Shown here: positions 13,715 through 64,000 of the stretch, in pieces | How positions within the stretch are numbered: position 1 is the first letter of the stretch | Layout of the letters: every line of letters starts with the position of its first letter | Assembly (NCBI GenBank): GCA_021791445.1 | Contig: JAJYWO010000002.1 | Location: 21,757-85,756 of the forward strand | Direction: 5' to 3' | From: a bacterium | Lineage (GTDB): Bacteria > Patescibacteriota > Minisyncoccia > UBA6257 > UBA9933 | Length of the DNA stretch: 64,000 bases | Notes under the pieces: model-generated | The model's input: only the letters and a program-made list of their open reading frames with translations | Database searches by the model: none | What the model was told of the DNA's origin: nothing | Translations under genes and position numbers: made by a program

Positions 13715-14836
13715 TCAAATTATCACCCCGCCGCCAAGCATTTCGCCTTTTTTGTCGTAGAATACGGCGGATTGGCCGGGAGCTATAAATTTAACAGGCG
13801 CGTCAAATTCAATTTTCAATTTTGAATTCTGAATTTTCAATTTCGCCGAAACTAATGGTTGGCGATAACGCACTCGCGCGTAAATTGTTATTCGCTTATT
13901 CGCGCGAATTAGAGAATAACAATTTGGATTTATAAAATTTACACCTGTCAATTGGATTTCTTTTCTGTATAACGCCGGACTATCTTCTCCTTCGGCAACC
14001 ACAATAATATTTTTCTTTATATTTTTTTCAACCACATAATATGGCTTTTTGGAGCCGCCGATGCCCAATCCGTGCCGCTGGCCGATGGTGTAAAAATGCG
14101 CGCCTTTGTGTTTGCCTATTTTTTTGCCGAAAATATCCAAAACATTCCCCCTTTTTTCGGGAATGTATTTTTTTAAAAAATCATCAAGCGAAACTTTTCC
14201 CAAAAAACAAATTCCCTGTGAATCCTTTTTTTCGGCTGTCGCCAATCCGGCTTTTTTGGCGATTTTTCGCACTTCGTTTTTCAAATAACCGCCAATCGGG
14301 AAAAGACAATGCTTTAATTGTTTCTGCGTCAAAGTCCAAAGGAAATACGATTGATCTTTATTTGTGTCTTTGGCTTGCCAAAGACTAAATTTTGAATTTT
14401 GAATTTTGAATTTTGAATTTGTTTGGGATTTGGGATTTCGAATTTGGGATTTTTGCAAGCGGACATAATGACCGCTTGCGATGTAATCCGCTCCCATTTT
14501 CAACGCTTTATTCAGAAATAAGCCGAACTTAATTTCGCGATTACACATCACATCCGGGTTCGGCGTAATCCCCTTCTTATATCCTTTTACCATATATTCC
14601 ACCACTTTCTTTTTGTATTCTTCTTCAAAATCCCAAACGTAAAAAGGAATTTTCAATTTTTCAGCCACGCGGCGAGCGTCTTCGGCGTCGCGCTCGCTGC
14701 ATCCGTCTAAATTATAACAGCGCATAAAAACACCGACTACTTTATAGCCTTGTTTTTTTAATAATAAAGCGGCGACGCTGGAATCAACGCCGCCCGACAT
14801 TGCCACAAATACAGTTTTCTTATTATTTTTCTTCAT
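13715..14836 (-). CDS. mnmA: tRNA 2-thiouridylase MnmA
   Basis: VFVAMSGGVDSSVAA PP-loop. Carries two in-frame heptamer repeats, at 13808-13845 and 14406-14473. Confidence 0.9.
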   Translation of the reverse strand: MKKNNKKTVFVAMSGGVDSSVAALLLKKQGYKVVGVFMRCYNLDGCSERDAEDARRVAEKLKIPFYVWDFEEEYKKKVVEYMVKGYKKGITPNPDVMCNREIKFGLFLNKALKMGADYIASGHYVRLQKSQIRNPKSQTNSKFKIQNSKFSLWQAKDTNKDQSYFLWTLTQKQLKHCLFPIGGYLKNEVRKIAKKAGLATAEKKDSQGICFLGKVSLDDFLKKYIPEKRGNVLDIFGKKIGKHKGAHFYTIGQRHGLGIGGSKKPYYVVEKNIKKNIIVVAEGEDSPALYRKEIQLTGVNFINPNCYSLIRANKRITIYARVRYRQPLVSAKLKIQNSKLKIEFDAPVKFIAPGQSAVFYDKKGEMLGGGVII

Positions 14837-15512
14837 TAAGCTGTTTTATAACATTTTTTAAGTCATCTGGCAATTCGGCTTCTATTTTTATTCGCTCACC
14901 GTTTTTTGAACTGAATTCCAATGATTCGGCGTGAAGAAATTGGCGCTTTAATCCCAATGGATTGTCTTTTGGCCCGTAAAGCGAATCACCGATAATCGGA
15001 TGGCCGATTGAAGCCAAATGCACTCTGATTTGATGAGTTCTGCCGGTTCTTGGTGACGCTTCCACTAAAGAAAAGTTTTTTAAATATTTTAAAACTTTAT
15101 ATTCGGTAATCGCGACTTTTTCATCTTTGCCTTTATGAATCGTTCTTTTAACGCTTCCCGATTTTATCATAATCGGCTTTTCTATAACGCTACTTTTCGG
15201 TTTTATTTCTCCGTACGCCAAAGCCAAATATTTCTTTTTTATTTTATGTTCTTGAAAAAGTTTTTTGGCATAATTGAAAAAAATTTGATTGCGGCAAATT
15301 AAAATCACGCCGGAAGTGTCTTTATCTAAGCGGTGCACTATTCCCGGTCTGATTTGCGGTTCATCCCCCACTTTTTTTATTTCCGGATATTTTTTAAGAA
15401 GCCAATCCGTCAAAGCCGGCTCCGACGAATTTTTTACAGGATGAACCAATAACCCGGCCGGTTTGTTAATTGCCGCAAAATCTGGAGTCTCGTAAATTAC
15501 TTCGATTTTCAT
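14823..15512 (-). CDS. RluA-family pseudouridine synthase
   Basis: HRLDKDTSGVIL catalytic motif. Start moved to the ATG at 15512 so it does not overlap tRNA-Val. Confidence 0.8.
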   Translation of the reverse strand: MKIEVIYETPDFAAINKPAGLLVHPVKNSSEPALTDWLLKKYPEIKKVGDEPQIRPGIVHRLDKDTSGVILICRNQIFFNYAKKLFQEHKIKKKYLALAYGEIKPKSSVIEKPIMIKSGSVKRTIHKGKDEKVAITEYKVLKYLKNFSLVEASPRTGRTHQIRVHLASIGHPIIGDSLYGPKDNPLGLKRQFLHAESLEFSSKNGERIKIEAELPDDLKNVIKQLNEEK

Positions 15513-15587
15513 TGGTGCGCGATAGAAGGATTGAACTTCTGACCTCTTCAATGTCAATGAAGCGCTCTACCACTGAGCTAATCGCGC
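15513..15587 (-). tRNA. tRNA-Val(GAC)
   Basis: Cloverleaf folded by hand. Anticodon loop TTGACAT. CCA is encoded. Confidence 0.85.
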
Positions 15588-24267: not shown

Positions 24268-25383
24268 TTAATCCATTTCTTTTTTTAAATCCTCCAATAT
24301 TTTTTTCGCTTTCGCATTCGGTTTTTTCGGGGTTTTGATTTTCAGTTCAACAACCAGATTACCGCGGCCGTGCGAGCCGAAAATCGGCATCCCCTGTTTT
24401 GAAATTATCAAATCTCCTTTCAAATCAAAATTTTCCGGAATTTCAATCTGGATTTTATTGCCGTCAATCGTTGGCGCTTCAATTTTTTCTCCCAATAAAA
24501 TATCAACCAGCTTCACTTCTTTTTTAACAAACAAATCATTTCCGCGCCTGTTGAAAATATGATGCGGCTTTATTTTGATTCGAACATAAAGGTCGCCGGT
24601 TCCCGCCCCTTTTTCTCCGGCTTCGCCCGCGCCTTGAACTTTTATTAATTGTCCGTCCATTATGCCCGCCAAAATTTCAATTTTTACATTGCGTTCGCCG
24701 GAAATTCTTCCGGCGCCGCGGCAATTATGGCAAACTTTTTTCGGAATCTGTCCGCTGCCTTGGCATTCTTTGCATTGTTTGATTTGGGTAAAATTGCCGA
24801 AAAAGGTGCTTCTCGCTTCTTTAATCTCTCCCCTGCCTCCGCAAACAGCGCATTTTTCCAATCCTTCTTTAATATCATAGCCTTTGCTTTCGCATTTTTC
24901 GCAAGAAACGGAAATGCCGTATTTTAATTCTTTTTTCGCGCCGTAAAAAGCTTCTTCAAGCGTTATTTCCTGGATAATTTCAACATCCGCTCCGCGATGG
25001 TAAGTGCGGCGTTTTTGTCTTACGCCCATTCCTTCGAAAAACGCGTTGAAAATATCGCCCAAGTCGGCCATATCGCCGAAAGCCGAAGGGTCCCAGCCCG
25101 AGGCTGGTCCGCCTTGGGCGGAAAAATCAAATCCGAATCCAAACGGACCGTTTCCATCGGAAGCGAATCCGCTTTGGCCGTCAAAAACCCTGCCGTATTT
25201 GTCATATTGCTCCCGCTTGTTTTTATCCGACAAAACCGCGTACGCCTCGGCGATTTCCTTGAATTTTTTTTCATCGCCGCTTTTTTTGTCCGGATGATAT
25301 TGATGCGCTAATTTTCGGAAAGCTTTTTTAATTTCGTCTTCCGACGCGCCTTTGTTTATGCCGAGAATTTTATAGTAATCCAA
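24268..25383 (-). CDS. dnaJ: Chaperone DnaJ
   Basis: J domain with HPDK and four CxxCxGxG repeats. Apparent TTG start. Confidence 0.9.
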
Positions 25384-25465
25384 CGCAGTTCATAAAGTTA
25401 TAAAGTTATAAAGTTATAAAGTAAAATTTAGAAAACTTTATAACTTTAAAAACATTATAAACTTT

Positions 25466-26470
25466 CTACTTTAATATAATTATCTCCTTGCTTCTTCCTT
25501 CAAGCTCCACATTGGCGAAACCGAACGCCAAAAGAAGTTCGTAGATTATGAACGCCAAAAAAGAAATTATCAAGCGAACCGGCATCGCCAAAATTTCCAA
25601 AGTCATAAAAATAGTCAATACGATGCCGATTAAAATTATTGATTTGATATTTTCCGGAAAAGAATTGAATTTGTATTTCGCCGCCTCGTAAAGCGCTTCG
25701 CTGATTTTAAGATTTCCGCTTACGGGCGCGCCGATGAAATCAACGGCTTTCGCTTCAATTTCTCCGGCCGCTTGTTTGACCATTAAATTTTTGACGGCTT
25801 TCGGCAAAATGCTTAATTCCGGAGTCTGTTCAATCTGTTTTTTCGCCAGACTTTCGGCGAATTCTTTGAATGTGAGCGATAAATCCAATTCAGGATAAAA
25901 TTTTTGCGCCACTAAAACCGAAGGCGACAAGATTTTATTAAAATTAGACTCGGAAATGAAAAAATCTTTTTTCTCCGCGGAATCGGCGTAAATGTAAACA
26001 ACGCTTATAAATAAGAAAATGGCCGCCACGGCCTTCGGCAAAACCGTTTTGCTTATTTTCCAAAAGCTCACTTTAAGCGAATTTTTAAGTTCCCTGATTC
26101 CGTTAAGATTAGCCGCGATCAACGCCAAAAAAACAAAAGCGATTCCGATTAATATCGCGGTATTGGAAACATTGTCGTAAAAAGCCGCCAACAATCCCGC
26201 GCAACTCAAAAAAATCGCCAAAACGCTGATTTTAAAGCTTTTAATGAAAAGCGTTTGCAAAAGAAAAATTATCAGGAAAATAGTTACGGATAATCCGGAA
26301 AATAAAAGAAAATTTCCTTCGTTGCCTTGAAAAAATAATTTAAAAAAATAACCGAAAGCGGAAAGCGAGGCAATGCTTAAAACCGCCAAAACGGCGATTT
26401 TAAGCATTGACCTGTCGGTATCAACCGAATTCGCAATTGTATTACTGCTGCTGTTGTTGTCCTGAGTCAT
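25466..26470 (-). CDS. Polytopic membrane protein of unknown function, between dnaK and dnaJ
   Basis: Multiple hydrophobic helices. No motif assigned. Confidence 0.45.
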
Positions 26471-28277
26471 CTTGTTTTGGTTGATTATACATCGCCGCGC
26501 CGATTTTTTGAAGCTCCGCGGAAAGTTCGGCTGTTTTTGATTTAATCGCTTCCATATCTTGTCCGTCTTTGACTGATTTTAATTCCGTTATTTTAGCGTT
26601 CACCGCGTCTTTAACTTCTTGTGAAACTTTATCGCCGGCTTCGGTAACCGCTTTTTCAGCGGCGTAAACCGCCTGCTCCGCGATATTTTTCGCTTCAATT
26701 AATTCTTTCTTTTTCCTGTCTTCCTCGGCGTGCGCCGCGGCTTCTTGTTTCAATTTTTCTATTTCGTCTTTGGAAAGCTGGGTTGACGCTTCAATGCGCA
26801 CGGTTTGAGTTTTGTTTGTGGCTTTGTCTTTCGCCGAAACGCTCAAAATTCCGTTGGCGTCAATGTCAAAAACGACTTCCACTTGCGGGATGCCGCGGGG
26901 AGACGGCGGAATGCCGTCCAAAATAAATCTGCCCAGTGTTTTATTGTCAGTCGCCATCGCGCGCTCTCCTTGTAAAATATGGATTTCAACGGATGTCTGA
27001 TTATCCGCCGCGGTTGAAAAAACTTGCGATTTGGAAGTCGGAACAGTCGTATTTTTTTCAATCAACGGAGTGAATACTCCGCCGAGAGTTTCAATTCCGA
27101 GTGAAAGCGGAGTAACGTCAAGCAAGAGAATGTCTTTAACGTCGCCCTGGAAAATTCCGGCTTGCACTGCGGCTCCAGATGCCACAACTTCATCGGGATT
27201 GATTCCTTTATGCGGTTCTTTGTTGAAAAGTTTTTTAACCGCTTCCTGAATTGCCGGCATTCTGGTTTGTCCACCGACAAGAACAATTTCATTAATGTCG
27301 GAAATTTTAAATCCCGCGTCTTCTATGGCTTTTTTGGTCAAATCAATTGAATGATTAATGTCTTCGGCCACCAATTCTTCCAACTTGGCGCGCGTCATTT
27401 TTATAACGAAATGTTTCGGTCCGGACGCGTCGGAAGTGATGTACGGCAGATTGATTTCCGTTTCAAAAGCAGTTGAAAGTTCGTGTTTGGCGCGTTCCGC
27501 CGCTTCTTTCAATCTTTGCAGCGCCAATGGATCTTTGGAAATATCAATGCCTTCCTGTTTCTTGTATTCTTCAACCAAAAATTGGATTATCTTCTTGTCA
27601 AAATCGTCTCCGCCAAGATGAGTGTCGCCGCCCGTGCCTTTCACTTCAACCACATCGTCGCCGACTTCCAAAATGGAAATGTCAAAAGTTCCGCCGCCAA
27701 AATCGTAAACAACGATTTTTTCGTTTTTCTGGCGGTTTAAGCCGTAAGCCAGAGCCGCGGCCGTGGGTTCGTTGATGATTCTGCGGACTTTAAGGCCGGC
27801 TATTTCTCCGGCGTTTTTCGTGGCCTGCCTTTGAGAATCGTCAAAATACGCCGGAACCGTGATAACGGCTTCTTCTATTTTTTCTCCGGTTTTCGCCTCG
27901 GCGTCGGCTTTTAATTTCGCCAAAACCATGGCGGAGATTTCTTCCGGCTTATACCACTTGTCGCCCATTTTCACTTCAACGCCTCCGGTTGAAGATTTTT
28001 GAATGTCAAACGGAAACCACGCTTTGTCTCTTTGCACTTCCGCATCGTCAAAATTGCGGCCAATAAGGCGTTTTACCGAAAAAATCGTGTTTTTCGGATT
28101 AACGACTCCCTGGCGCTTCGCCAAGAGCCCAATCAATCGTTCGTTATTTTTGTTTAGCGCCGCAACTGACGGAGTGGTGCGATTGCCTTCGTAATTTTCC
28201 AGAATCTTCGGTTCGCCCGCTTCCACTATCGCCATCGCCGAATTTGTTGTTCCTAAATCTATACCTAAAATTTTCAT
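26442..28277 (-). CDS. dnaK: Chaperone DnaK (Hsp70)
   Basis: [18 protein letters not shown] and the Hsp70 signatures. Confidence 0.95.
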
Positions 28278-28298
28278 AGTTTTATTTTTATTTTAATT

Positions 28299-28790
28299 TT
28301 ATTTACTTATTTTTACCCTTGCCGGCCTGACCAGTTTACCGTGCAATAAATATCCTCTTTCCACTTCTTCAACAATCGCGCCACTCGGCTTATCCGAATC
28401 AACGCTCACAATCGCTTCCTGTAAAGATGGGTCGAACGGCTGCCCGGTTGAAATAATAACTCGTTCCAAACCGTTTTGTTTAAGAATATCCTCCAATTGT
28501 GCCCTGATTAAATAAATACCCTTTTCCACTTTGCCTTCCTTTTCCAATGCCGCCAGAGCCAAATCAAAGCTGTCCAAAACCGTTATCAAATCTTTAATAA
28601 TCGCTTCTTGGGAAAATTTCGCCATCATTTCAAATCTTTTCATCTCGTCTTTCTTGTAATTTATCAAATCCGCTTTCGCCCGCTTCCATCCGTCAAGATA
28701 TTCATCGCGCTCTTTTTGGCATTTGTTTAATTCATTATTTTCTCCGTTTATTTCAGATTTTTGTTCGTCGTTTTTTTGAATATCGTCCAT
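28299..28790 (-). CDS. grpE: Nucleotide exchange factor GrpE
   Basis: GrpE coiled-coil plus a C-terminal beta domain. Positioned upstream of dnaK. Confidence 0.85.
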   Translation of the reverse strand: MDDIQKNDEQKSEINGENNELNKCQKERDEYLDGWKRAKADLINYKKDEMKRFEMMAKFSQEAIIKDLITVLDSFDLALAALEKEGKVEKGIYLIRAQLEDILKQNGLERVIISTGQPFDPSLQEAIVSVDSDKPSGAIVEEVERGYLLHGKLVRPARVKISK

Positions 28791-28864: not shown

Positions 28865-28902
28865 TATAACATTTTATCTACGATCGCAAATAAAATGTTA
28901 TA
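28865..28902. promoter_or_regulatory. 38-bp palindromic operator TATAACATTTTATCTACGATCGCAAATAAAATGTTATA, about 75 nt upstream of grpE
   Basis: Inverted repeat seen in the sequence. It belongs to the four-member family, with the others at 28990, 29688 and 45311. Confidence 0.5.
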
Positions 28903-28989: not shown

Positions 28990-29027
28990 TATAACAAATT
29001 GTTTACGATCGTAAGTAATTTGTTATA
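28990..29027. promoter_or_regulatory. Second palindromic operator TATAACAAATTGTTTACGATCGTAAGTAATTTGTTATA
   Basis: Inverted repeat with a central TTACGATCGTAA. Lies between the regulator stop and grpE. Confidence 0.5.
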
Positions 29028-29038
29028 CAATATTAAAA

Positions 29039-29662
29039 TTATTCTTCAAAATTTTTAAATTTTTCAAATATTCCGTCATCATCTATTTCTCCAATAGTAA
29101 TCATTCTAATACATTGATAGAGATTTTTCCTTAAAATATCCTCATAAACATCTTCTTCAATGGGTCGCTTTCCCATAAAAACACTTCTCTGTATTGGTTG
29201 ATAATTTATTGACAATAATTGAAATCTTAACCAGTCGCGTTCTTTTCTTTTCTTCTCGGGGATATCAAACATCACCATTCTCCATTTACCGTCCCATGTT
29301 TCCCGCTCCGGTTTATTTTCTTTGTTCTTTAAAAAATCGATTATTTTCAAGCCGGCCGAAGTAATATGATATTTCCTGCCTTTTTTCGTTATCAATCCTT
29401 TTTGCTGAAGCCGCCACAGCGTTGTTCGCGCGCTGTTTTTTCTCATATTTTGCAGTTCGTCGTAATAATCCCAAAAATTCCCGAGATTTGCCATTTTGCC
29501 GTAGCTTCTTCCCAAACTATGTCCGCCGGTTTCCAAAATTTCCGAAAGCGCGGCTGTTCCCCTTTCCGCCAGTCCGAAAATCAGGGCCAAGCCGGCCATA
29601 CTGACATTAATCGGCAATTCTTCAACGGTTTTTTTTAGTTGTTTTTTATTTATGCCGGACAT
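29039..29662 (-). CDS. PaaX-like transcriptional regulator (N-terminal wHTH plus PaaX_C-like domain), in the position usually held by hrcA
   Basis: The wHTH region reads LGRSYGKMANLGNFWDYYDELQ...TTLWRLQQKGLI. The C-terminal WDGKWRMVMFDIPE..R..R..LR..L...QRSVFM matches the PaaX C-domain pattern. Confidence 0.55.
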   Translation of the reverse strand: MSGINKKQLKKTVEELPINVSMAGLALIFGLAERGTAALSEILETGGHSLGRSYGKMANLGNFWDYYDELQNMRKNSARTTLWRLQQKGLITKKGRKYHITSAGLKIIDFLKNKENKPERETWDGKWRMVMFDIPEKKRKERDWLRFQLLSINYQPIQRSVFMGKRPIEEDVYEDILRKNLYQCIRMITIGEIDDDGIFEKFKNFEE

Positions 29663-29687: not shown

Positions 29688-29731
29688 AAGTATAACATCT
29701 TACTGCCGATCGGCAATGAAATGTTATACTT
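29688..29731. promoter_or_regulatory. Palindromic operator AAGTATAACATCTTACTGCCGATCGGCAATGAAATGTTATACTT, 26 nt upstream of the regulator gene and divergent from cysS
   Basis: Near-perfect 44-bp palindrome of the same family. Confidence 0.5.
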
Positions 29732-43927: not shown

Positions 43928-45304
43928 TTATTCTCCTTTTATAACCGCCACGGGAACCAAGCGCGCGACTTTTTTTGACAATCCGGCTTGATGGGTAATT
44001 TCAACGACTTCGTCTATATTTTTGTACGCCTGCGGCGCTTCTTCGGCGATGCCGCGCATTGAATAACATTTCACTATGATATTTTTACTTCTTAAATTTT
44101 CGACAATCTCTTTCCCGGATAATGTTTTTATCGCCTGATGCCGGCTCATCATTCTGCCCGCGCCATGAGCCGAAGAATAAAACGCTTCCTTGCCGCTTTC
44201 TTGGCCGATTAAAACATAAGAAGCCGTTCCCATTGAACCCGGAATCAAAACCGGCTGGCCGGGGAAAGCCCGTGTGGCGCCCTTGCGATGAACTATTAAA
44301 TTATTCTCAATTTTAGCGATATTATGCGCGACATCGTATAAAACACTCAACCCTCGGCCATTTAACGCTTTATCCCACACTTGCCGAACATAATGAGTAA
44401 TCATTTGCCTGTTCGCCCAGGCGAAATTCGCTCCGCAAGCCATTGCCTTGAAAAATCTTTGGCCTTCCGCGGAATTAAACGGCGCGCAAGCCAATTCCCT
44501 ATCCGGCAATTCAATGCCGTATTTCGGCATCACTTGAACCATTAAGCGAATATAATCCGTGGCAATCTGATGCCCTAAACCGCGGCTGCCGGTGTGAATC
44601 ATTACAACGACTTGATTCTCAAATAAGCCGAATTTTTTGGCGGTTTCTTTATCGTATATTTTATCAACTTTCTGAATTTCCAAAAAATGATTGCCCGAGC
44701 CGAGCGTGCCGACTTGATCTCGGCCGCGATTTTTCGCAATTTGCGAAACTTCTAAAGCGTCCGCCCAATCCAATTTGCCGTTAGATTCGCAATTTTCAAT
44801 ATCCTGTTTTTCGCCGAATCCTCGTCTTACAATTTCCTGCGCTCCGTTTTCCAAAATTTTATCCAATTCGGAAACGTTTAATTTCTGCAGATGCCCCCTG
44901 CCTAATCCTGATGGCACAGTTCTTTGGATTTCCGTTGCCAAAGCGTCAAGATGATTTTTGATTTCATCAATAAAAATATTTGATTTCAATAATCTCACCC
45001 CGCAATTCTGATCATAACCCACGGCGCCCGGAGAAATTACGCCACCCTCAACGCGTGTGGCGAAAACGCCGCCGATAGGACTGCCATATCCTTCATGCGC
45101 GTCCGGCATCACAATCGCGTATTTTTCAATCCCCGGAAGCGTCGTCAAATTAACCAACTGCTCCAAGCTTCTGTCCTGAAAAATATATTCCAGCATTTTT
45201 TCGCTGGCGTAAATTCTTGCCGGCACTTTCATATCGCTCCGAAAAGATTTGGGGATTTCCCATAAATAATCGCTGATTTTAATTAAATCTTGTTTATTTA
45301 TCAT
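43928..45304 (-). CDS. rtcB: RNA 3'-phosphate ligase RtcB
   Basis: Conserved RtcB histidine-containing segments: HTGSRGLGHQ, HNIAKIE and SAHGAGR. Confidence 0.9.
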   Translation of the reverse strand: MINKQDLIKISDYLWEIPKSFRSDMKVPARIYASEKMLEYIFQDRSLEQLVNLTTLPGIEKYAIVMPDAHEGYGSPIGGVFATRVEGGVISPGAVGYDQNCGVRLLKSNIFIDEIKNHLDALATEIQRTVPSGLGRGHLQKLNVSELDKILENGAQEIVRRGFGEKQDIENCESNGKLDWADALEVSQIAKNRGRDQVGTLGSGNHFLEIQKVDKIYDKETAKKFGLFENQVVVMIHTGSRGLGHQIATDYIRLMVQVMPKYGIELPDRELACAPFNSAEGQRFFKAMACGANFAWANRQMITHYVRQVWDKALNGRGLSVLYDVAHNIAKIENNLIVHRKGATRAFPGQPVLIPGSMGTASYVLIGQESGKEAFYSSAHGAGRMMSRHQAIKTLSGKEIVENLRSKNIIVKCYSMRGIAEEAPQAYKNIDEVVEITHQAGLSKKVARLVPVAVIKGE

Positions 45305-45310
45305 TTATTT

Positions 45311-45356
45311 AAAGTATAACATTTTGTTGTCGATCGACAACAAAATGTTATACTTT
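45311..45356. promoter_or_regulatory. 46-bp perfect palindrome AAAGTATAACATTTTGTTGTCGATCGACAACAAAATGTTATACTTT, 6 nt upstream of the rtcB ATG
   Basis: Same family as the grpE and regulator operators. No Shine-Dalgarno sequence lies between it and the ATG. Confidence 0.55.
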
Positions 45357-45378
45357 TCGCAATTTATAATTATTATTC

Positions 45379-45900
45379 TTACAATCTAAATCTCTCCAAA
45401 ATTTCGTATTCCGCGCCGTTGCGCGATAAATGCGAGCGCATAATTATAAATTCTTCGACTATTTCTCGCCAATTGATTTTATCGTCTATTTTTTTAACGG
45501 GAAAATTTTTAAAATCTTCCGGCCGAAAGCGCGCCAAAGTTAAATGCAGTAAAAAATCGTTTCTTTCGCTCGGCATATTCAGCGCGTTTTCCAATAATTT
45601 CTTCAATTCAATAATTTGCTTCGGCGTTTTACCGATTGCCCAAATTAAGCGTGGCGAATAACTATTTGTACCAAAAGAAACTTTTTCAAAATTCATTTCA
45701 AAAGAACCGATTTTGCTTTCAATTGTCTTTAAAATATCCTTAACTTCGTCAATATTGTCTTCCTCCCACGGAGGAATTAAGGTAATATGAAGATTTTTGC
45801 CCTCCAACCAGCGCGCCGGCAAATCCGAATAAAATTCCCGATATTTCTCAATTTCCTTTTGCAATTTTTTCGAAATCGGAATGGCAATGAATATTCTCAT
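45379..45900 (-). CDS. thpR: 2H phosphoesterase (LigT/ThpR, 2'-5' RNA ligase)
   Basis: Two H-x-T-x motifs (HITLIP and HLTLAR). Confidence 0.75.
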   Translation of the reverse strand: MRIFIAIPISKKLQKEIEKYREFYSDLPARWLEGKNLHITLIPPWEEDNIDEVKDILKTIESKIGSFEMNFEKVSFGTNSYSPRLIWAIGKTPKQIIELKKLLENALNMPSERNDFLLHLTLARFRPEDFKNFPVKKIDDKINWREIVEEFIIMRSHLSRNGAEYEILERFRL

Positions 45901-46304
45901 ACATCAAAAACCAAAATAGTTTCCCATTCGCCTTTTTCGTTTTTCTTAATATCGGCTTCGTGGTAAGTGACAGCCTTGATATCTTCGTCAAAATTTTCAA
46001 CCGCTACGCCGTAAATTTCCGCTTTTAATTCTGTCTCGCTGAACTGTAAAAATTTTACATCAGCATAAATCTCTTTGTTTATTTGCGATTGCGCCAAAAC
46101 CTCGCTTAGAAAATCCACCAAAAGCGCTGTTTTGTCCGGCGATTGAATTTTAATCAGTTTTTTCGATATTGAAATTTGTGGTTTGTAATTTGGAATTTGA
46201 ACAAATGTCATTCCTTGTAACGCGTCGCGAAAAAGCGTTTCCAAATCTCCCGCCCTTACCGACATTCTCACATCCGCCGTATGTTTCAAAAATTTAAAAG
46301 GCAT
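45897..46304 (-). CDS. Archease (RtcB activator)
   Basis: N-terminus MPFKFLKHTADV matches the archease pattern and the size is right. Co-oriented with ligT and rtcB. Confidence 0.65.
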   Translation of the reverse strand: MPFKFLKHTADVRMSVRAGDLETLFRDALQGMTFVQIPNYKPQISISKKLIKIQSPDKTALLVDFLSEVLAQSQINKEIYADVKFLQFSETELKAEIYGVAVENFDEDIKAVTYHEADIKKNEKGEWETILVFDV

Positions 46305-49273: not shown

Positions 49274-49311
49274 ATATTCAATTTTTACGAATTACAGTAT
49301 ATAATTTCGGA

Positions 49312-50661
49312 ATGAAAATTGCAATCTTGGGATTCGGCAGCGAAGGAAAAGCGGTTTTGAAATTCCTTCAACAACGCGGACAGACGCGGAACAAACGCGG
49401 AATAACGCGGAATAATAATGAAATTTGGATTTTGGACAAAAATCATAATTTAAGGCCTCCGCAAGGCCTTCAATTTCAAGTTGGCGAAAATTATCTAAAA
49501 AACCTCGCTGATTTTGACATTGTTTTTCGCTCACCCGGAATCCCCTACAACTTGCCAGAAATTCAAAACGCGATTAAAAAAGGCGTAAAATTTTCCGGCG
49601 CCACAGACTTATTTTTTCAAAACGCCAGAAAAATCGGCTGTAAAATAATCGGCATTACCGGCACCAAAGGCAAGGGCACGATTTCAACTTTGCTTTACAA
49701 AATTTTGCGGAATGCCGGCAAAGATGTTTTTTTGGCGGGCAATATCGGCAAGCCCGCGTTGGATATTCTAGCGAAACTCAAAAAAAATTCCATCGTTATT
49801 TTGGAAATGTCCAGTTTTCAATTACAAGACTTACAACATTCTCCGGACATCGCCGTTGTTTTAAATGTTTTTGAAGATCATCTGGATAGCCATAAAAATT
49901 TTAAAGAATACATCAGCGCCAAGGCGCAAATTGCCAAATTCCAAAAACCAAATTCCAAAATATTCTATGACGCGAGCAATAAATGGAGCAAGTGGATTGC
50001 GCAAAAAAGCCCTGCCCAAAAATTCCCAATAAACCCTTTATTCTCTAATTCTGCAGAATTAGAGAATAAAGTAAAATCTGTCGTAAAAATACCGGGCGAA
50101 CATAATTTAAAAAACGCCGTAATAACGGCGACAGTGGCTAAATCCCTCGGCATTCCGGAAAATATCATCTTAAAAACCGTCAAAAACTACCGCGGCATGG
50201 AGCACCGCCTGGAATTGGTTCATTCCAACATTCTCAAGAATGTTGGAATGAATTTTTTTAACGATTCTGCTTCAACGAATCCTTATACAGCTGCGGCCGC
50301 GATTCGCGCTTTTCCGAATCAGCCGAAAATTTTAATCTGCGGAGGAAAAGACAAAAATCTTGACTACGCTCCCCTCGCCCAGGCATTAAAAAATTCTAAA
50401 ACGAAAATGGTAATTTTATTCGGCGAAAATAAAAAAAAAATAAATAAGGCAATCAATAATCAAAAACTAGCAATCAGGAAAGTGGAAAATCTACAACAAG
50501 CCGTTCAACTCGCCTACAAAACCGCTAAGCAATTACAACAATTAAAACAATATAACAATACAAACATCATCTTCTCCCCCGCCGCCGCCAGTTTTGACAT
50601 GTTTAAAGATTATAAAGACCGAGGCGAACAATTCAAAAAAATCGTGAAAAAGTTGAAATAA
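49312..50661 (+). CDS. murD: UDP-N-acetylmuramoylalanine--D-glutamate ligase
   Basis: MKIAILGFG N-terminus and GITGTKGKGT P-loop. In-frame decamer repeat (AACGCGGAAT)n at 49370-49412. Confidence 0.85.
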   Translation: MKIAILGFGSEGKAVLKFLQQRGQTRNKRGITRNNNEIWILDKNHNLRPPQGLQFQVGENYLKNLADFDIVFRSPGIPYNLPEIQNAIKKGVKFSGATDLFFQNARKIGCKIIGITGTKGKGTISTLLYKILRNAGKDVFLAGNIGKPALDILAKLKKNSIVILEMSSFQLQDLQHSPDIAVVLNVFEDHLDSHKNFKEYISAKAQIAKFQKPNSKIFYDASNKWSKWIAQKSPAQKFPINPLFSNSAELENKVKSVVKIPGEHNLKNAVITATVAKSLGIPENIILKTVKNYRGMEHRLELVHSNILKNVGMNFFNDSASTNPYTAAAAIRAFPNQPKILICGGKDKNLDYAPLAQALKNSKTKMVILFGENKKKINKAINNQKLAIRKVENLQQAVQLAYKTAKQLQQLKQYNNTNIIFSPAAASFDMFKDYKDRGEQFKKIVKKLK

Positions 50662-56038: not shown

Positions 56039-56076
56039 TTAAACATTATATCAATAAAAAACAGCCGCGTGAACGG

Positions 56077-57748: not shown

Positions 57749-57775
57749 TAATAAATTATACTTGAAAATTTAATT

Positions 57776-59872: not shown

Positions 59873-60670
59873 TTAACGGAGCGGCTCGACATAAATTTCC
59901 GTTCTATTCGGGTCCGCGAAAGTGAAGCTCACTGCCGAAGGCGCCGTTGCGCCGAGCAAAACTACTTCTTTCGGGAAAATTATTTTGAAATATCTTTCCT
60001 CAAACGCTTTCAAATTGTCCAGTTCGGTTTTGGAAGCGCTGATTTTAATATTATTGGAGGTCGCCAAAAATCCGACCAGCCGGATTTTTCTCAGCGGATA
60101 AGCGTTTTCATTGATTATATATCCGCTCACCTCCACGCCCTTGCCGCTCTCGCTCATTTTTACAATCCTTTCTCTGATCTGCGTCTTGGGCTTCGGAAAT
60201 TTCTCGGTTGCCAGCCATTGAACATCCGAAAAGGAAATTTTAATTTCGCCGATATCGGAATAATTCAAATCCGCGAGTTCAAACACGTATTTTATTTCCG
60301 AAGCGTAAATAAAAGAACTGTTGGAAATTGTTTTTATTTTTACGCCGCTTTTATTATAAATATCAAAAACATAAGAAAATCGGCTGGCGCCGTAATTGGT
60401 ATTGGAATTTTTAATCTGCGTCGCAAACGCCGCTTTGCCGTTAATCGGAAAATAATTGCTCCAAACCGATTGAAGCGGCAATAAAGTTTTTATTTCGCAA
60501 GCCGCGCACGGCCCGCCGCAATCAATTCCGATTTCGCCCTGATTTTTTTTCTCGTCAAAACAAGTCGGCGCCGGCTTTAAAAACAAAAAATAAATTCCCG
60601 CCAGAATCAAAAAAACAATCGCCAAATATCCGGAACCGTAAATTATTTGCTTAATCAAACGTTTTCCCAT
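59873..60670 (-). CDS. Hypothetical secreted or membrane protein. Start trimmed so it does not overlap 5S rRNA.
   Basis: The ORF as listed would run into the 5S gene, so an internal Met at MGKRLIKQ is used. One N-terminal TM helix. Confidence 0.35.
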   Translation of the reverse strand: MGKRLIKQIIYGSGYLAIVFLILAGIYFLFLKPAPTCFDEKKNQGEIGIDCGGPCAACEIKTLLPLQSVWSNYFPINGKAAFATQIKNSNTNYGASRFSYVFDIYNKSGVKIKTISNSSFIYASEIKYVFELADLNYSDIGEIKISFSDVQWLATEKFPKPKTQIRERIVKMSESGKGVEVSGYIINENAYPLRKIRLVGFLATSNNIKISASKTELDNLKAFEERYFKIIFPKEVVLLGATAPSAVSFTFADPNRTEIYVEPLR

Positions 60671-60705
60671 TAATAAAATTATACATATTTTCGGCAAATA
60701 AAAAA

Positions 60706-60821
60706 GCCGGCAAACCCTACTTTCCCAGCCGTCGAAACAGCAAGTATCATCGGGACTGCGCACTTTCACTGTCCTGTTCGGAATGGGAAGGAGTGGTGCA
60801 TACGCAGCTAAATCACCGGCA
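60706..60821 (-). rRNA. rrf: 5S rRNA
   Basis: Reverse complement contains CCCATTCCGAACAGGACAGTGAAA with complementary termini GCCGGTG/TTGCCGGC. Confidence 0.8.
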
Positions 60822-60932: not shown

Positions 60933-60979
60933 TTTCAAAACTTATCCAACTTATTGAATCTTAAATTTTTGAAGAAAAC

Positions 60980-63958
<2,979 letters not shown>

Positions 63959-64000
63959 CTTCTCGAATTTAAGATTCAAGAAGTTGGACAATTTATATTT

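Follow-up and report, generated by a model that had tools for sequence, protein, structure and literature searches.

The RNA-repair gene cluster archease-ligT/ThpR-rtcB of a patescibacterium (GTDB lineage Patescibacteriota; Minisyncoccia; UBA6257; UBA9933) carries a perfect 46-bp palindrome directly before rtcB, and the same palindrome core recurs around a gene coding for a small PaaX-like protein at the grpE-dnaK chaperone locus. In our analysis of 64,000 nt of this genome (assembly GCA_021791445.1, contig JAJYWO010000002.1, positions 21,757 to 85,756; the window), we favor, with moderate confidence, a reading in which the palindrome is the operator of a PaaX-like repressor and contains the promoter of a leaderless rtcB transcript. 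The features at and around rtcB, and the other copies of the core, are as follows.

45311-45356, no strand: perfect 46-bp palindrome, AAAGTATAACATTTTGTTGTCGA and TCGACAACAAAATGTTATACTTT, with a 38-bp core at 45315-45352; predicted PaaX-like operator
45313..45321, minus strand: extended -10 element TGTTATACT, coinciding with the rtcB-proximal half-site; hexamer TATACT at 45318-45313
45335..45340, minus strand: -35-like hexamer TTGTCG within the palindrome, from a promoter scan
45304..43928, minus strand: rtcB, 458 aa; PF01139 positions 1-426 of 426, E=4.6e-161
43919-43900, minus strand: terminator-like GC-rich hairpin and T-run just past the rtcB stop, AGGGGTTCTTCGGAGCCCTT then TTATTTTTTT
45900..45379, minus strand: ligT/ThpR 2H phosphoesterase gene, 173 aa; TIGR02258, PF02834
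46304..45897, minus strand: archease gene, 135 aa; PF01951 positions 1-136 of 136, E=3.9e-26
46345-46337, minus strand: putative extended -10 element TGATATAAT of archease-ligT, 32 nt before the archease ATG, as read from the sequence
28865-28902, no strand: core copy, 74 nt before the grpE ATG
28990-29027, no strand: core copy, 11 nt past the regulator stop; distal grpE site
29691-29728, no strand: core copy, 28 nt from the regulator gene and 39 nt from cysS, which are divergent

The palindrome is separated from the rtcB ATG by 6 nt (AAATAA), just as a first-pass annotation of this DNA had described, and its core, TATAACA-N9-CGATCG-N9-TGTTATA, consists of inverted 7-bp half-sites with centers 31 bp apart (7-N24-7) around a central CGATCG. 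There are exactly four matches to this core in the window, all with 0 mismatches, against an expectation of 0.01; the palindrome is of one family with the grpE sites, to which the annotation had matched its half-sites. The regulator/cysS-type operator arrangement of 29691-29728 is also present in L035, L041, L047, L055, and L142 (comparison loci are given by their L numbers). The annotation had taken the palindrome to be the operator of the whole operon; however, it lies inside the cluster, in the 74-nt ligT-rtcB gap, with archease and ligT upstream of it behind an extended -10 element of their own and only rtcB downstream. The core was not found in the intergenic region upstream of archease.

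In the promoter scan, each strand of the palindrome yields TTGTCG-16-TATACT and an upstream TG, and the position of TTGTCG reads TTGACG in many related sites. On the rtcB strand, the -10 hexamer lies 8 nt from the ATG, and across sites the start codon most often lies 10-22 nt from the core. The annotation had drawn attention to the lack of a Shine-Dalgarno (SD) sequence before rtcB, and there is indeed none, but this does not set rtcB apart: only 5 of 45 long open reading frames (ORFs) in the window have an SD-like motif, and the proximal half-site is the -10 box. Of 42 window genes, 18 have a TATAAT-like hexamer 6-9 nt before the start codon, the distances peaking sharply at 6 nt (49287-49311, 56039-56060, and 57749-57765 are examples of -10 boxes close to start codons), a spacing that suggests pervasive leaderless mRNAs in an SD-poor genome. 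Because the genome is SD-poor and has -10 boxes so close to its start codons, the rtcB mRNA is probably leaderless or has a 1-2 nt leader, with a predicted, repressor-controlled start at ~45306-45304. In RNA read through from ligT, a 21-bp hairpin would end 6 nt short of the AUG, and since the organism is SD-less, rtcB probably depends on its own promoter.

We therefore propose, as a working model, that the cluster would, in this lineage, be split into two transcription units, archease-ligT, with its own promoter and translational coupling by an ATGA overlap (the ligT ATG lies within the archease TGA), and rtcB, whose transcript would end at the hairpin right after the gene. The palindrome would be one operator copy of a minimal PaaX-family repressor, encoded at 29662..29039 and composed of a winged helix and a Cas2-like dimerization domain, and the rtcB-proximal half-site would double as the extended -10 box that sets the leaderless or 1-2 nt leader start. 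A repressor dimer on the palindrome would cover both the -35 and -10 elements and shut out RNA polymerase in the manner of PaaX, and on its release rtcB, the repressor gene, and grpE-dnaK-dnaJ would all be turned on. What we infer here is the binding, the repression, the signal that induces, and the reason for co-inducing an RNA ligase, with heat or proteotoxic stress a guess from the targets.

A candidate regulator at the grpE-dnaK locus

The likely regulator, a PaaX-like gene at 29662..29039, was missed by the first-pass annotation. It and the chaperone genes are arranged as follows.

29662..29039, minus strand: candidate regulator gene, 207 aa, winged helix-turn-helix (wHTH) plus Cas2-like domain (PaaX_M); PF20803, E=5.4e-17, and HTH_45
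28790..28299, minus strand: grpE (Pfam GrpE)
28277..26442, minus strand: dnaK (Pfam HSP70)
Between dnaK and dnaJ, minus strand: 334-aa ORF, within the chaperone block 24268..28790
25383..24268, minus strand: dnaJ (Pfam DnaJ)

The regulator gene occupies the usual place of hrcA, directly upstream of grpE-dnaK-(orf)-dnaJ, and no hrcA was found upstream of grpE in the window. A search of the window for the controlling inverted repeat of chaperone expression (CIRCE; TTAGCACTC-N9-GAGTGCTAA) gave 0 matches at up to 3 mismatches, and the HspR-associated inverted repeat (HAIR) was not found there. The AlphaFold (AF2) model of the regulator, with a pLDDT (confidence score) of only 70, has 8a39 (E. coli PaaX), 3kfw, and 3l09 as its top Foldseek matches, followed by Cas2 proteins. 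The protein ends after the Cas2-like domain, at 207 aa vs ~305-316, and scores 43 bits against the PaaX equivalog model TIGR02277, for which the cutoff is 264.6; it is a truncated PaaX relative, not PaaX. A protein search returned 94 homologs, all of ~200 aa and all with PF20803, which are annotated as hypothetical, PaaX, or Cas2. A conserved, low-confidence loop of ~17 residues (45-61; GPGRGLGRSY-like) interrupts the winged-helix region and could be sensor or partner binding.

E. coli PaaX is an autorepressor that binds TGATTC-N27-GAATCA (6-N27-6) in competition with RNA polymerase (PMC9493321). The window protein resembles PaaX of E. coli and Pseudomonas in having an N-terminal winged helix followed by the Cas2-like PF20803 domain, with 8a39 as the best fold match; the sites are alike in that short inverted half-sites lie ~2.5-3 helical turns apart (7-N24-7 here) and the operator stands before the regulator's own gene, overlapping promoter elements (PMC9493321). 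This overlap makes repression by exclusion of RNA polymerase plausible, and the regulator most plausibly acts like PaaX at Px, by steric exclusion of the polymerase at a widely spaced inverted repeat. Unlike PaaX, the 207-aa protein lacks the C-terminal phenylacetyl-CoA-binding effector domain, its predicted targets are chaperone, protease, RNA-maintenance, and housekeeping genes rather than those of aromatic catabolism, the operator adds an invariant CGATCG center and near-perfect spacer symmetry, and the host belongs to the Patescibacteria.

The association of regulator and palindrome extends well beyond the window. An exact core scan of one genome per GTDB species found 69 sites in 61 loci, with 1-8 sites per genome and essentially all of them in Patescibacteria/Parcubacteria, and in about 20 loci of Patescibacteria the palindrome family adjoins PaaX-like homologs, some with as little as 30% identity. 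A regulator homolog lies directly beside a site in L002, L022, L028, L031, L032, L035, L038, L041, L047, and L055, and grpE(-dnaK) is directly downstream of one in L006, L007, L041, L047, and L055. Of the proteins encoded <=130 nt downstream of a palindrome (64 in all), more belong to PaaX_M (11) than to any other family; GrpE (6), CysRS (4, as the divergent neighbor of the regulator), KsgA (3), and RtcB (3) also occur, the RtcB count being inflated as some loci were fetched through RtcB. Other targets in relatives are an HtrA-like protease (three genomes), ClpP, M16 peptidase, LemA (two), and TsaE, and sequence reading or aggregate family counts identified Fmt, TyrRS, and TypA.

Four more distant loci, L148-L151, were chosen by protein similarity only (30-45% identity), and all four have a 38-bp palindrome just upstream of the PaaX-like gene; in three of them a second palindrome lies just downstream of the regulator gene or within the gene that follows. 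The outer motifs of these palindromes have changed (CATAACAC, TATTACAC, and TTTACCAAG), with the CGATCG center kept in all but one. The recognition helix and the half-site co-vary: S(A/V/L)RTxLWRL is found with (T/C)ATAACA, GGRVILHRL with TATTACA, and RFYEMINRL with ACTTGTA.

The RNA-repair cluster

Profile searches with PF01951, TIGR02258, and PF01139 bear out the first-pass identities of archease, LigT/ThpR, and RtcB, as well as their co-orientation and contiguity; read along the minus strand, archease comes first, then ligT, the palindrome, and rtcB. That annotation had allowed that its reading would fail if the 135-aa protein were not an archease, and the protein matches PF01951 over its full length. 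Its best match in the PDB is P. horikoshii 4n2p, and the N-terminal HTAD and C-terminal KAVTYH tip motifs are kept. LigT/ThpR scores 89.5 bits with TIGR02258 (RNA 2′,3′-cyclic phosphodiesterase; curated cutoff 65.7) and can be aligned over its whole length with P. horikoshii PH0099 (1vdx), with both HxT motifs, HITL and HLTL, kept. RtcB matches P. horikoshii RtcB (4dwr) with E=1e-149, its best PDB matches being those of P. horikoshii, T. thermophilus, and human, and in a residue-by-residue alignment to PH1602 the motifs NCG (with the Cys nucleophile), GSGNHF, HTGSRGLGH, HRKGA, and HGAGR are identical or conserved; it scores 216 bits with the E. coli-type model NF007153, under the cutoff of 407. 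By sequence, RtcB is of the archaeal/eukaryal, archease-dependent type of 3′-phosphate RNA ligase, and GTP/Mn-dependent ligation activity is predicted.

The RNA-repair gene cluster is itself ordinary, an RNA end-healing and sealing set. The annotation had also reported that rtcR and rtcA are lacking, and we found no RtcR, RtcA, or sigma-54-activator domains among the >35 window ORFs scanned, rtcB neighbors included. ThpR-type enzymes leave 2′-phosphate ends, and RtcB cannot seal such ends; there is thus a functional tension between ligT (45379-45900) and rtcB (43928-45304), with no RtcA to re-cyclize 2′-phosphate ends. The rtcBA system of E. coli and Salmonella, under RtcR and sigma-54, likewise has a stress-linked transcriptional switch directly before rtcB, but here neither RtcR, RtcA, nor a sigma-54 activator is found, the RtcB is of the archease-dependent type, and the control predicted is that of a repressor at a sigma-70-type leaderless promoter.

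The first-pass annotation regarded the coupling of an archease to a bacterial RtcB as notable in itself. Such coupling is already on record for diverse bacteria (Desai et al. 2014, PMC3973293; also PMC4604427, 2015), and in our comparison set of 80 metagenomic relatives of rtcB (56-79% identity), ~58 have archease immediately before rtcB, often with a gap of 1-4 nt. LigT is found at the cluster in only two of the 80, L062 and L139; placed between archease and rtcB, it was seen in the window, its duplicate L143, and L062 only. As in the archease-rtcB 'tRNA splicing operon', archease is here upstream of rtcB and co-oriented with it; unlike in that operon, the LigT/ThpR gene and a promoter/operator cassette lie between the two, which would uncouple rtcB transcription.

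Elsewhere in the window, rRNA genes lie on the minus strand (23S, 60969-63962; 5S, 60705-60820), and a 298-aa ORF at 59873-60769, which has no Pfam match and overlaps the 5S gene, is probably spurious.

The palindrome family and competing explanations

Several observations weigh against a repressor operator at rtcB, among them the phylogenetic distribution of the site. No palindrome is present at rtcB in its nearest independent relatives, L062 (79%) and L144-L147 (78-80%); the ligT and rtcB genes of L062 share an ATGA, and L145 and L146 have 1-4 nt between archease and rtcB. We therefore read the window arrangement as derived, with a cassette-bearing spacer of about 77 nt that uncoupled rtcB. 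For the same reason, rtcB looks like a recurrent but peripheral, lineage-specific member of the regulon at best; the regulon core in the window clade looks like the regulator itself and grpE-dnaK. A further set of such observations concerns the sites at large. About a quarter of the 88 distinct sites are away from gene 5′ ends, with 11 between convergent genes and about 9-16 within genes, several of these in frame and conserved (RluA-type synthase in three genomes, archease in two, KsgA in two), all location classes resting on crude ORF calls. Convergent examples are L001 (membrane-protein ORF and GTPase-like ORF) and L020 (two long ORFs), with neighbors read from the sequence rather than scanned. 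Identity at the 'variable' positions is 0.68 within genomes vs 0.41 between them, and reaches 0.90 in JAGLUP, so that copies in one genome resemble each other far more than binding by a transcription factor would require, and differences between sites are symmetric changes in both arms. The regulator has no recognizable sensor domain, and the PaaX-like gene of L148, L149, and L151, all distant lineages, is beside ksgA, not grpE; the 'heat-shock' label may be valid for the window clade only.

The first-pass annotation had named absence of the palindrome from the rtcB loci of close relatives as a result that would refute it. The outcome is mixed: the palindrome is absent from L062 and L144-L147 but recurs at archease/rtcB in at least five other lineages (L024, L066, L088, L101, and L106) and is beside rtcB in L068. 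In L088 (12 nt before the ATG), L106, and L101, a CGATCG-centered 38-bp palindrome lies in the archease-rtcB gap, and in L068-L070 the regulator and two sites are directly after rtcB. In L024 (3751-3788) and L066 (3568-3605), the palindrome is in frame within the archease ORF at the same codon position (~116 nt in); the half-sites of the two differ (TATAACA and TATAGCA), and in L024 a GTG follows after 8 nt. L106 (1749-2760) also has a LAGLIDADG homing-endonuclease-like ORF (1952-2758) between the palindrome and rtcB, and a duplicated rtcB 5′ end (MQKQDFKKISDWLW...) 12 nt past the palindrome, before that ORF. L143, a public metagenome-assembled contig (GCA_023474725.1, JAMCXT010000008.1), is 100% identical to the window in the region compared, which takes in ligT, the palindrome, and rtcB, save for a masked N run that causes its rtcB to be annotated as split or partial; it is probably the same organism as that of the window and not independent support. 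Phylogenetic footprinting with L142 was set aside, as it is too close (95-97% identity in intergenic regions).

The main rival explanation is that the palindrome is a short self-propagating repeat, of the repetitive extragenic palindrome (REP), Rickettsia palindromic element (RPE), or miniature inverted-repeat transposable element (MITE) type, maybe bound or mobilized by the wHTH-Cas2-like protein; the rtcB copy would then be a recent insertion, and its promoter and operator traits incidental or co-opted. We consider this unlikely. In its favor, the window at the orthologous position has a 74-nt spacer where L062 has the ligT-rtcB ATGA overlap. The palindrome in the RluA-type synthase of L021, ~240 nt upstream of mnmA, is a 10-aa in-frame insertion without counterpart in the 75%-identical window ortholog (14823-15557), and its 38-mer is identical to that of the window rtcB site though in a different gene. 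The convergent (11/88) and intragenic (about 16/88, on the crude calls) sites, the high within-genome identity at non-conserved positions, and the number of perfect 38-mers (25/88) all suit such a repeat. Genes for REP-associated tyrosine transposases (RAYTs) are flanked by REPs, and the PaaX-like gene resembles them in being flanked by two copies in the window, L022, L038, L041, L047, L055, L068, L149, and L150 (identical in L150). Like REP/RAYT systems and RPEs, these are short palindromes present several times per genome, some in frame or, by the crude calls, between convergent genes, with a specific protein gene flanked by copies. Orthologous loci differ in presence or absence of a copy, which may reflect insertion, and several intragenic sites are conserved across genomes.

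Set against this, copies are few (the 64-kb window has four, of which three share one locus, and no genome has more than eight exact ones), and sites are kept at orthologous regulatory positions upstream of the regulator, grpE, and htrA and have promoter elements set at a constant spacing from start codons. Wherever a locus was examined, the copy past the regulator gene stands before a co-oriented gene. Neither a transposase nor terminal repeats were seen, nor convincing target-site duplications around the window insertion, and instead of a Y1 transposase the associated protein is a PaaX relative with wHTH and Cas2-like domains. Quasipalindrome correction is an established mutational mechanism that can yield symmetric arm changes neutrally. 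The symmetric changes fit copy-and-paste or structure-driven evolution as well as operator co-evolution, and intragenic, symmetric sites that are alike within a genome fit repressor co-evolution with quasipalindrome correction but also a copy-and-paste element.

A role at the RNA level is disfavored, and we regard it as improbable. The 21-bp hairpin before the rtcB AUG in archease-ligT read-through RNA might act as a terminator or attenuator, affect RNA processing or stability, or keep rtcB from being translated, and the 90-nt intergenic RNA before rtcB does fold strongly (-29 kcal/mol, z=-7.3; 21-bp stem, GAUC loop). The copy at 28990-29027, after the regulator stop, continues on the sense strand with TTTTATTTTTATT, and copies between convergent genes would suit a bidirectional terminator. 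On the rtcB strand, however, the AT-rich stem is followed by AAAUAAAUG, with no U-tract, and a terminator scan was negative, so an intrinsic terminator at the palindrome was rejected; the genome has canonical GC-rich terminators, such as that after rtcB, and T-runs flanking the convergent sites are inconsistent. G:U wobble-type arm mismatches have no strand bias (24 sense vs 18 antisense), and Rfam covariance models matched only rRNA and tRNA in the window, leaving the palindrome unmatched. An RNA-level role also leaves the obligate PaaX-like gene adjacency and the co-variation of helix and half-site unexplained. Because there is no wobble strand bias and the structure is not terminator-like, a DNA operator is the best reading of the palindrome.

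Least probable of these rivals is that the palindrome is a strong symmetric bidirectional sigma-70-type promoter or another factor's site with no dedicated PaaX-like repressor, its likeness to the grpE sites reflecting promoter strength and not co-regulation: TTGnCG-16-TATAyT with TGn is present on both strands, 13 copies are between divergent genes by the crude ORF calls (e.g., regulator/cysS and htrA/GT2), and the center reads TTGACGATCGTCAA, two overlapping -35 hexamers, in many genomes, but most window promoters are plain TATAAT boxes without a palindrome, the palindromes of distant lineages, L150 (TTTACCAAG...) and L068 (ACTTGTA...), have no -10-like sequence and still flank the PaaX-like gene, and the central CGATCG is invariant even without -35-like bases (JAGLUP, L044).

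Some further copies and a second repeat were seen in passing. The ksgA gene (RrnaAD) holds palindrome copies in L049 (at 78 and 372) and L151 (4872-4909), and the in-frame sites of the RluA-type pseudouridine synthase (YNxxxxIxNKxLY) are at L021 5878-5915, L023 440-477, and L052 813-850. Genes for an HtrA-like protease and a ~500-aa GT2-like membrane glycosyltransferase are divergent and have a palindrome in common in L005 (530, 2094), L018, and L050, and the glycosyltransferase gene of L005 has palindrome copies at both ends. A second palindrome family, TTATTCTCTAATTC-N4-GAATTAGAGAATAA, is found at 13882-13925 and 50036-50071 of the window, both copies apparently intragenic (mnmA and a MurD-like ligase gene); its half-sites have seven matches vs 1.3 expected.

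Relation to chaperone repression and implications

The proposed operator system parallels HrcA-CIRCE and HspR-HAIR in that the repressor gene is directly upstream of grpE-dnaK(-dnaJ) and an inverted-repeat operator overlaps the promoters of both the chaperone genes and the repressor gene itself, with negative autoregulation and stress de-repression predicted. It differs in that the window has neither CIRCE nor HAIR, the protein is PaaX-like and not HrcA or MerR-type, and the operator spans 38-46 bp, vs 27 bp for CIRCE; chaperone-titration feedback is purely hypothetical for it. The first-pass annotation had linked rtcB to a heat-shock regulon rather than to RtcR/sigma-54. The palindrome is common to grpE and rtcB, and no RtcR was found in the window; a heat-shock role would be drawn from the target genes only, namely grpE-dnaK, htrA, clpP, the M16 peptidase gene, and lemA. 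In Sulfolobus acidocaldarius, heat strongly induces RtcB and a 2′-5′ RNA ligase (PMC10653856), which makes co-regulation of RNA repair and proteostasis physiologically reasonable.

We also raise, tentatively, the doubtful possibility that in Parcubacteria-type Patescibacteria the minimal, PaaX-derived wHTH-Cas2-like protein, paired with its palindrome of 38-46 bp, makes up a portable promoter-plus-operator cassette, one that displaced HrcA/CIRCE at grpE-dnaK, spread by copy and paste (even in frame, as in archease, rluA, and ksgA), and rewires the stress regulon, including rtcB. The Cas2-like domain might help to recognize or propagate a hairpin or cruciform form of the palindrome.

A literature search, incomplete in its coverage, found nothing relevant on PaaX-like proteins in Patescibacteria or at a dnaK regulon, or on rtcB in a bacterial heat-shock regulon; a PaaX-like regulon with rtcB under a stress operator is, in the literature found, not described. 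To our knowledge, there is almost no experimental knowledge of transcriptional regulation in Patescibacteria (the candidate phyla radiation, CPR), a group with very few regulators and mostly uncultured members. Our analysis offers a concrete candidate regulator-operator pair, a 207-aa protein and a 38-bp site, with a predicted regulon of grpE-dnaK-dnaJ, proteases, and, in several lineages, RtcB. If true, this would be a third, non-homologous solution to chaperone-gene repression beside HrcA and HspR, and an example of a leaderless promoter embedded in its own operator. It would also tie RNA repair to the proteostasis response in bacteria without RtcR/sigma-54. RTCB has a role in the metazoan unfolded-protein response, and a link between RNA repair and proteostasis in these bacteria would echo both that role and the heat induction of RtcB in Sulfolobus.

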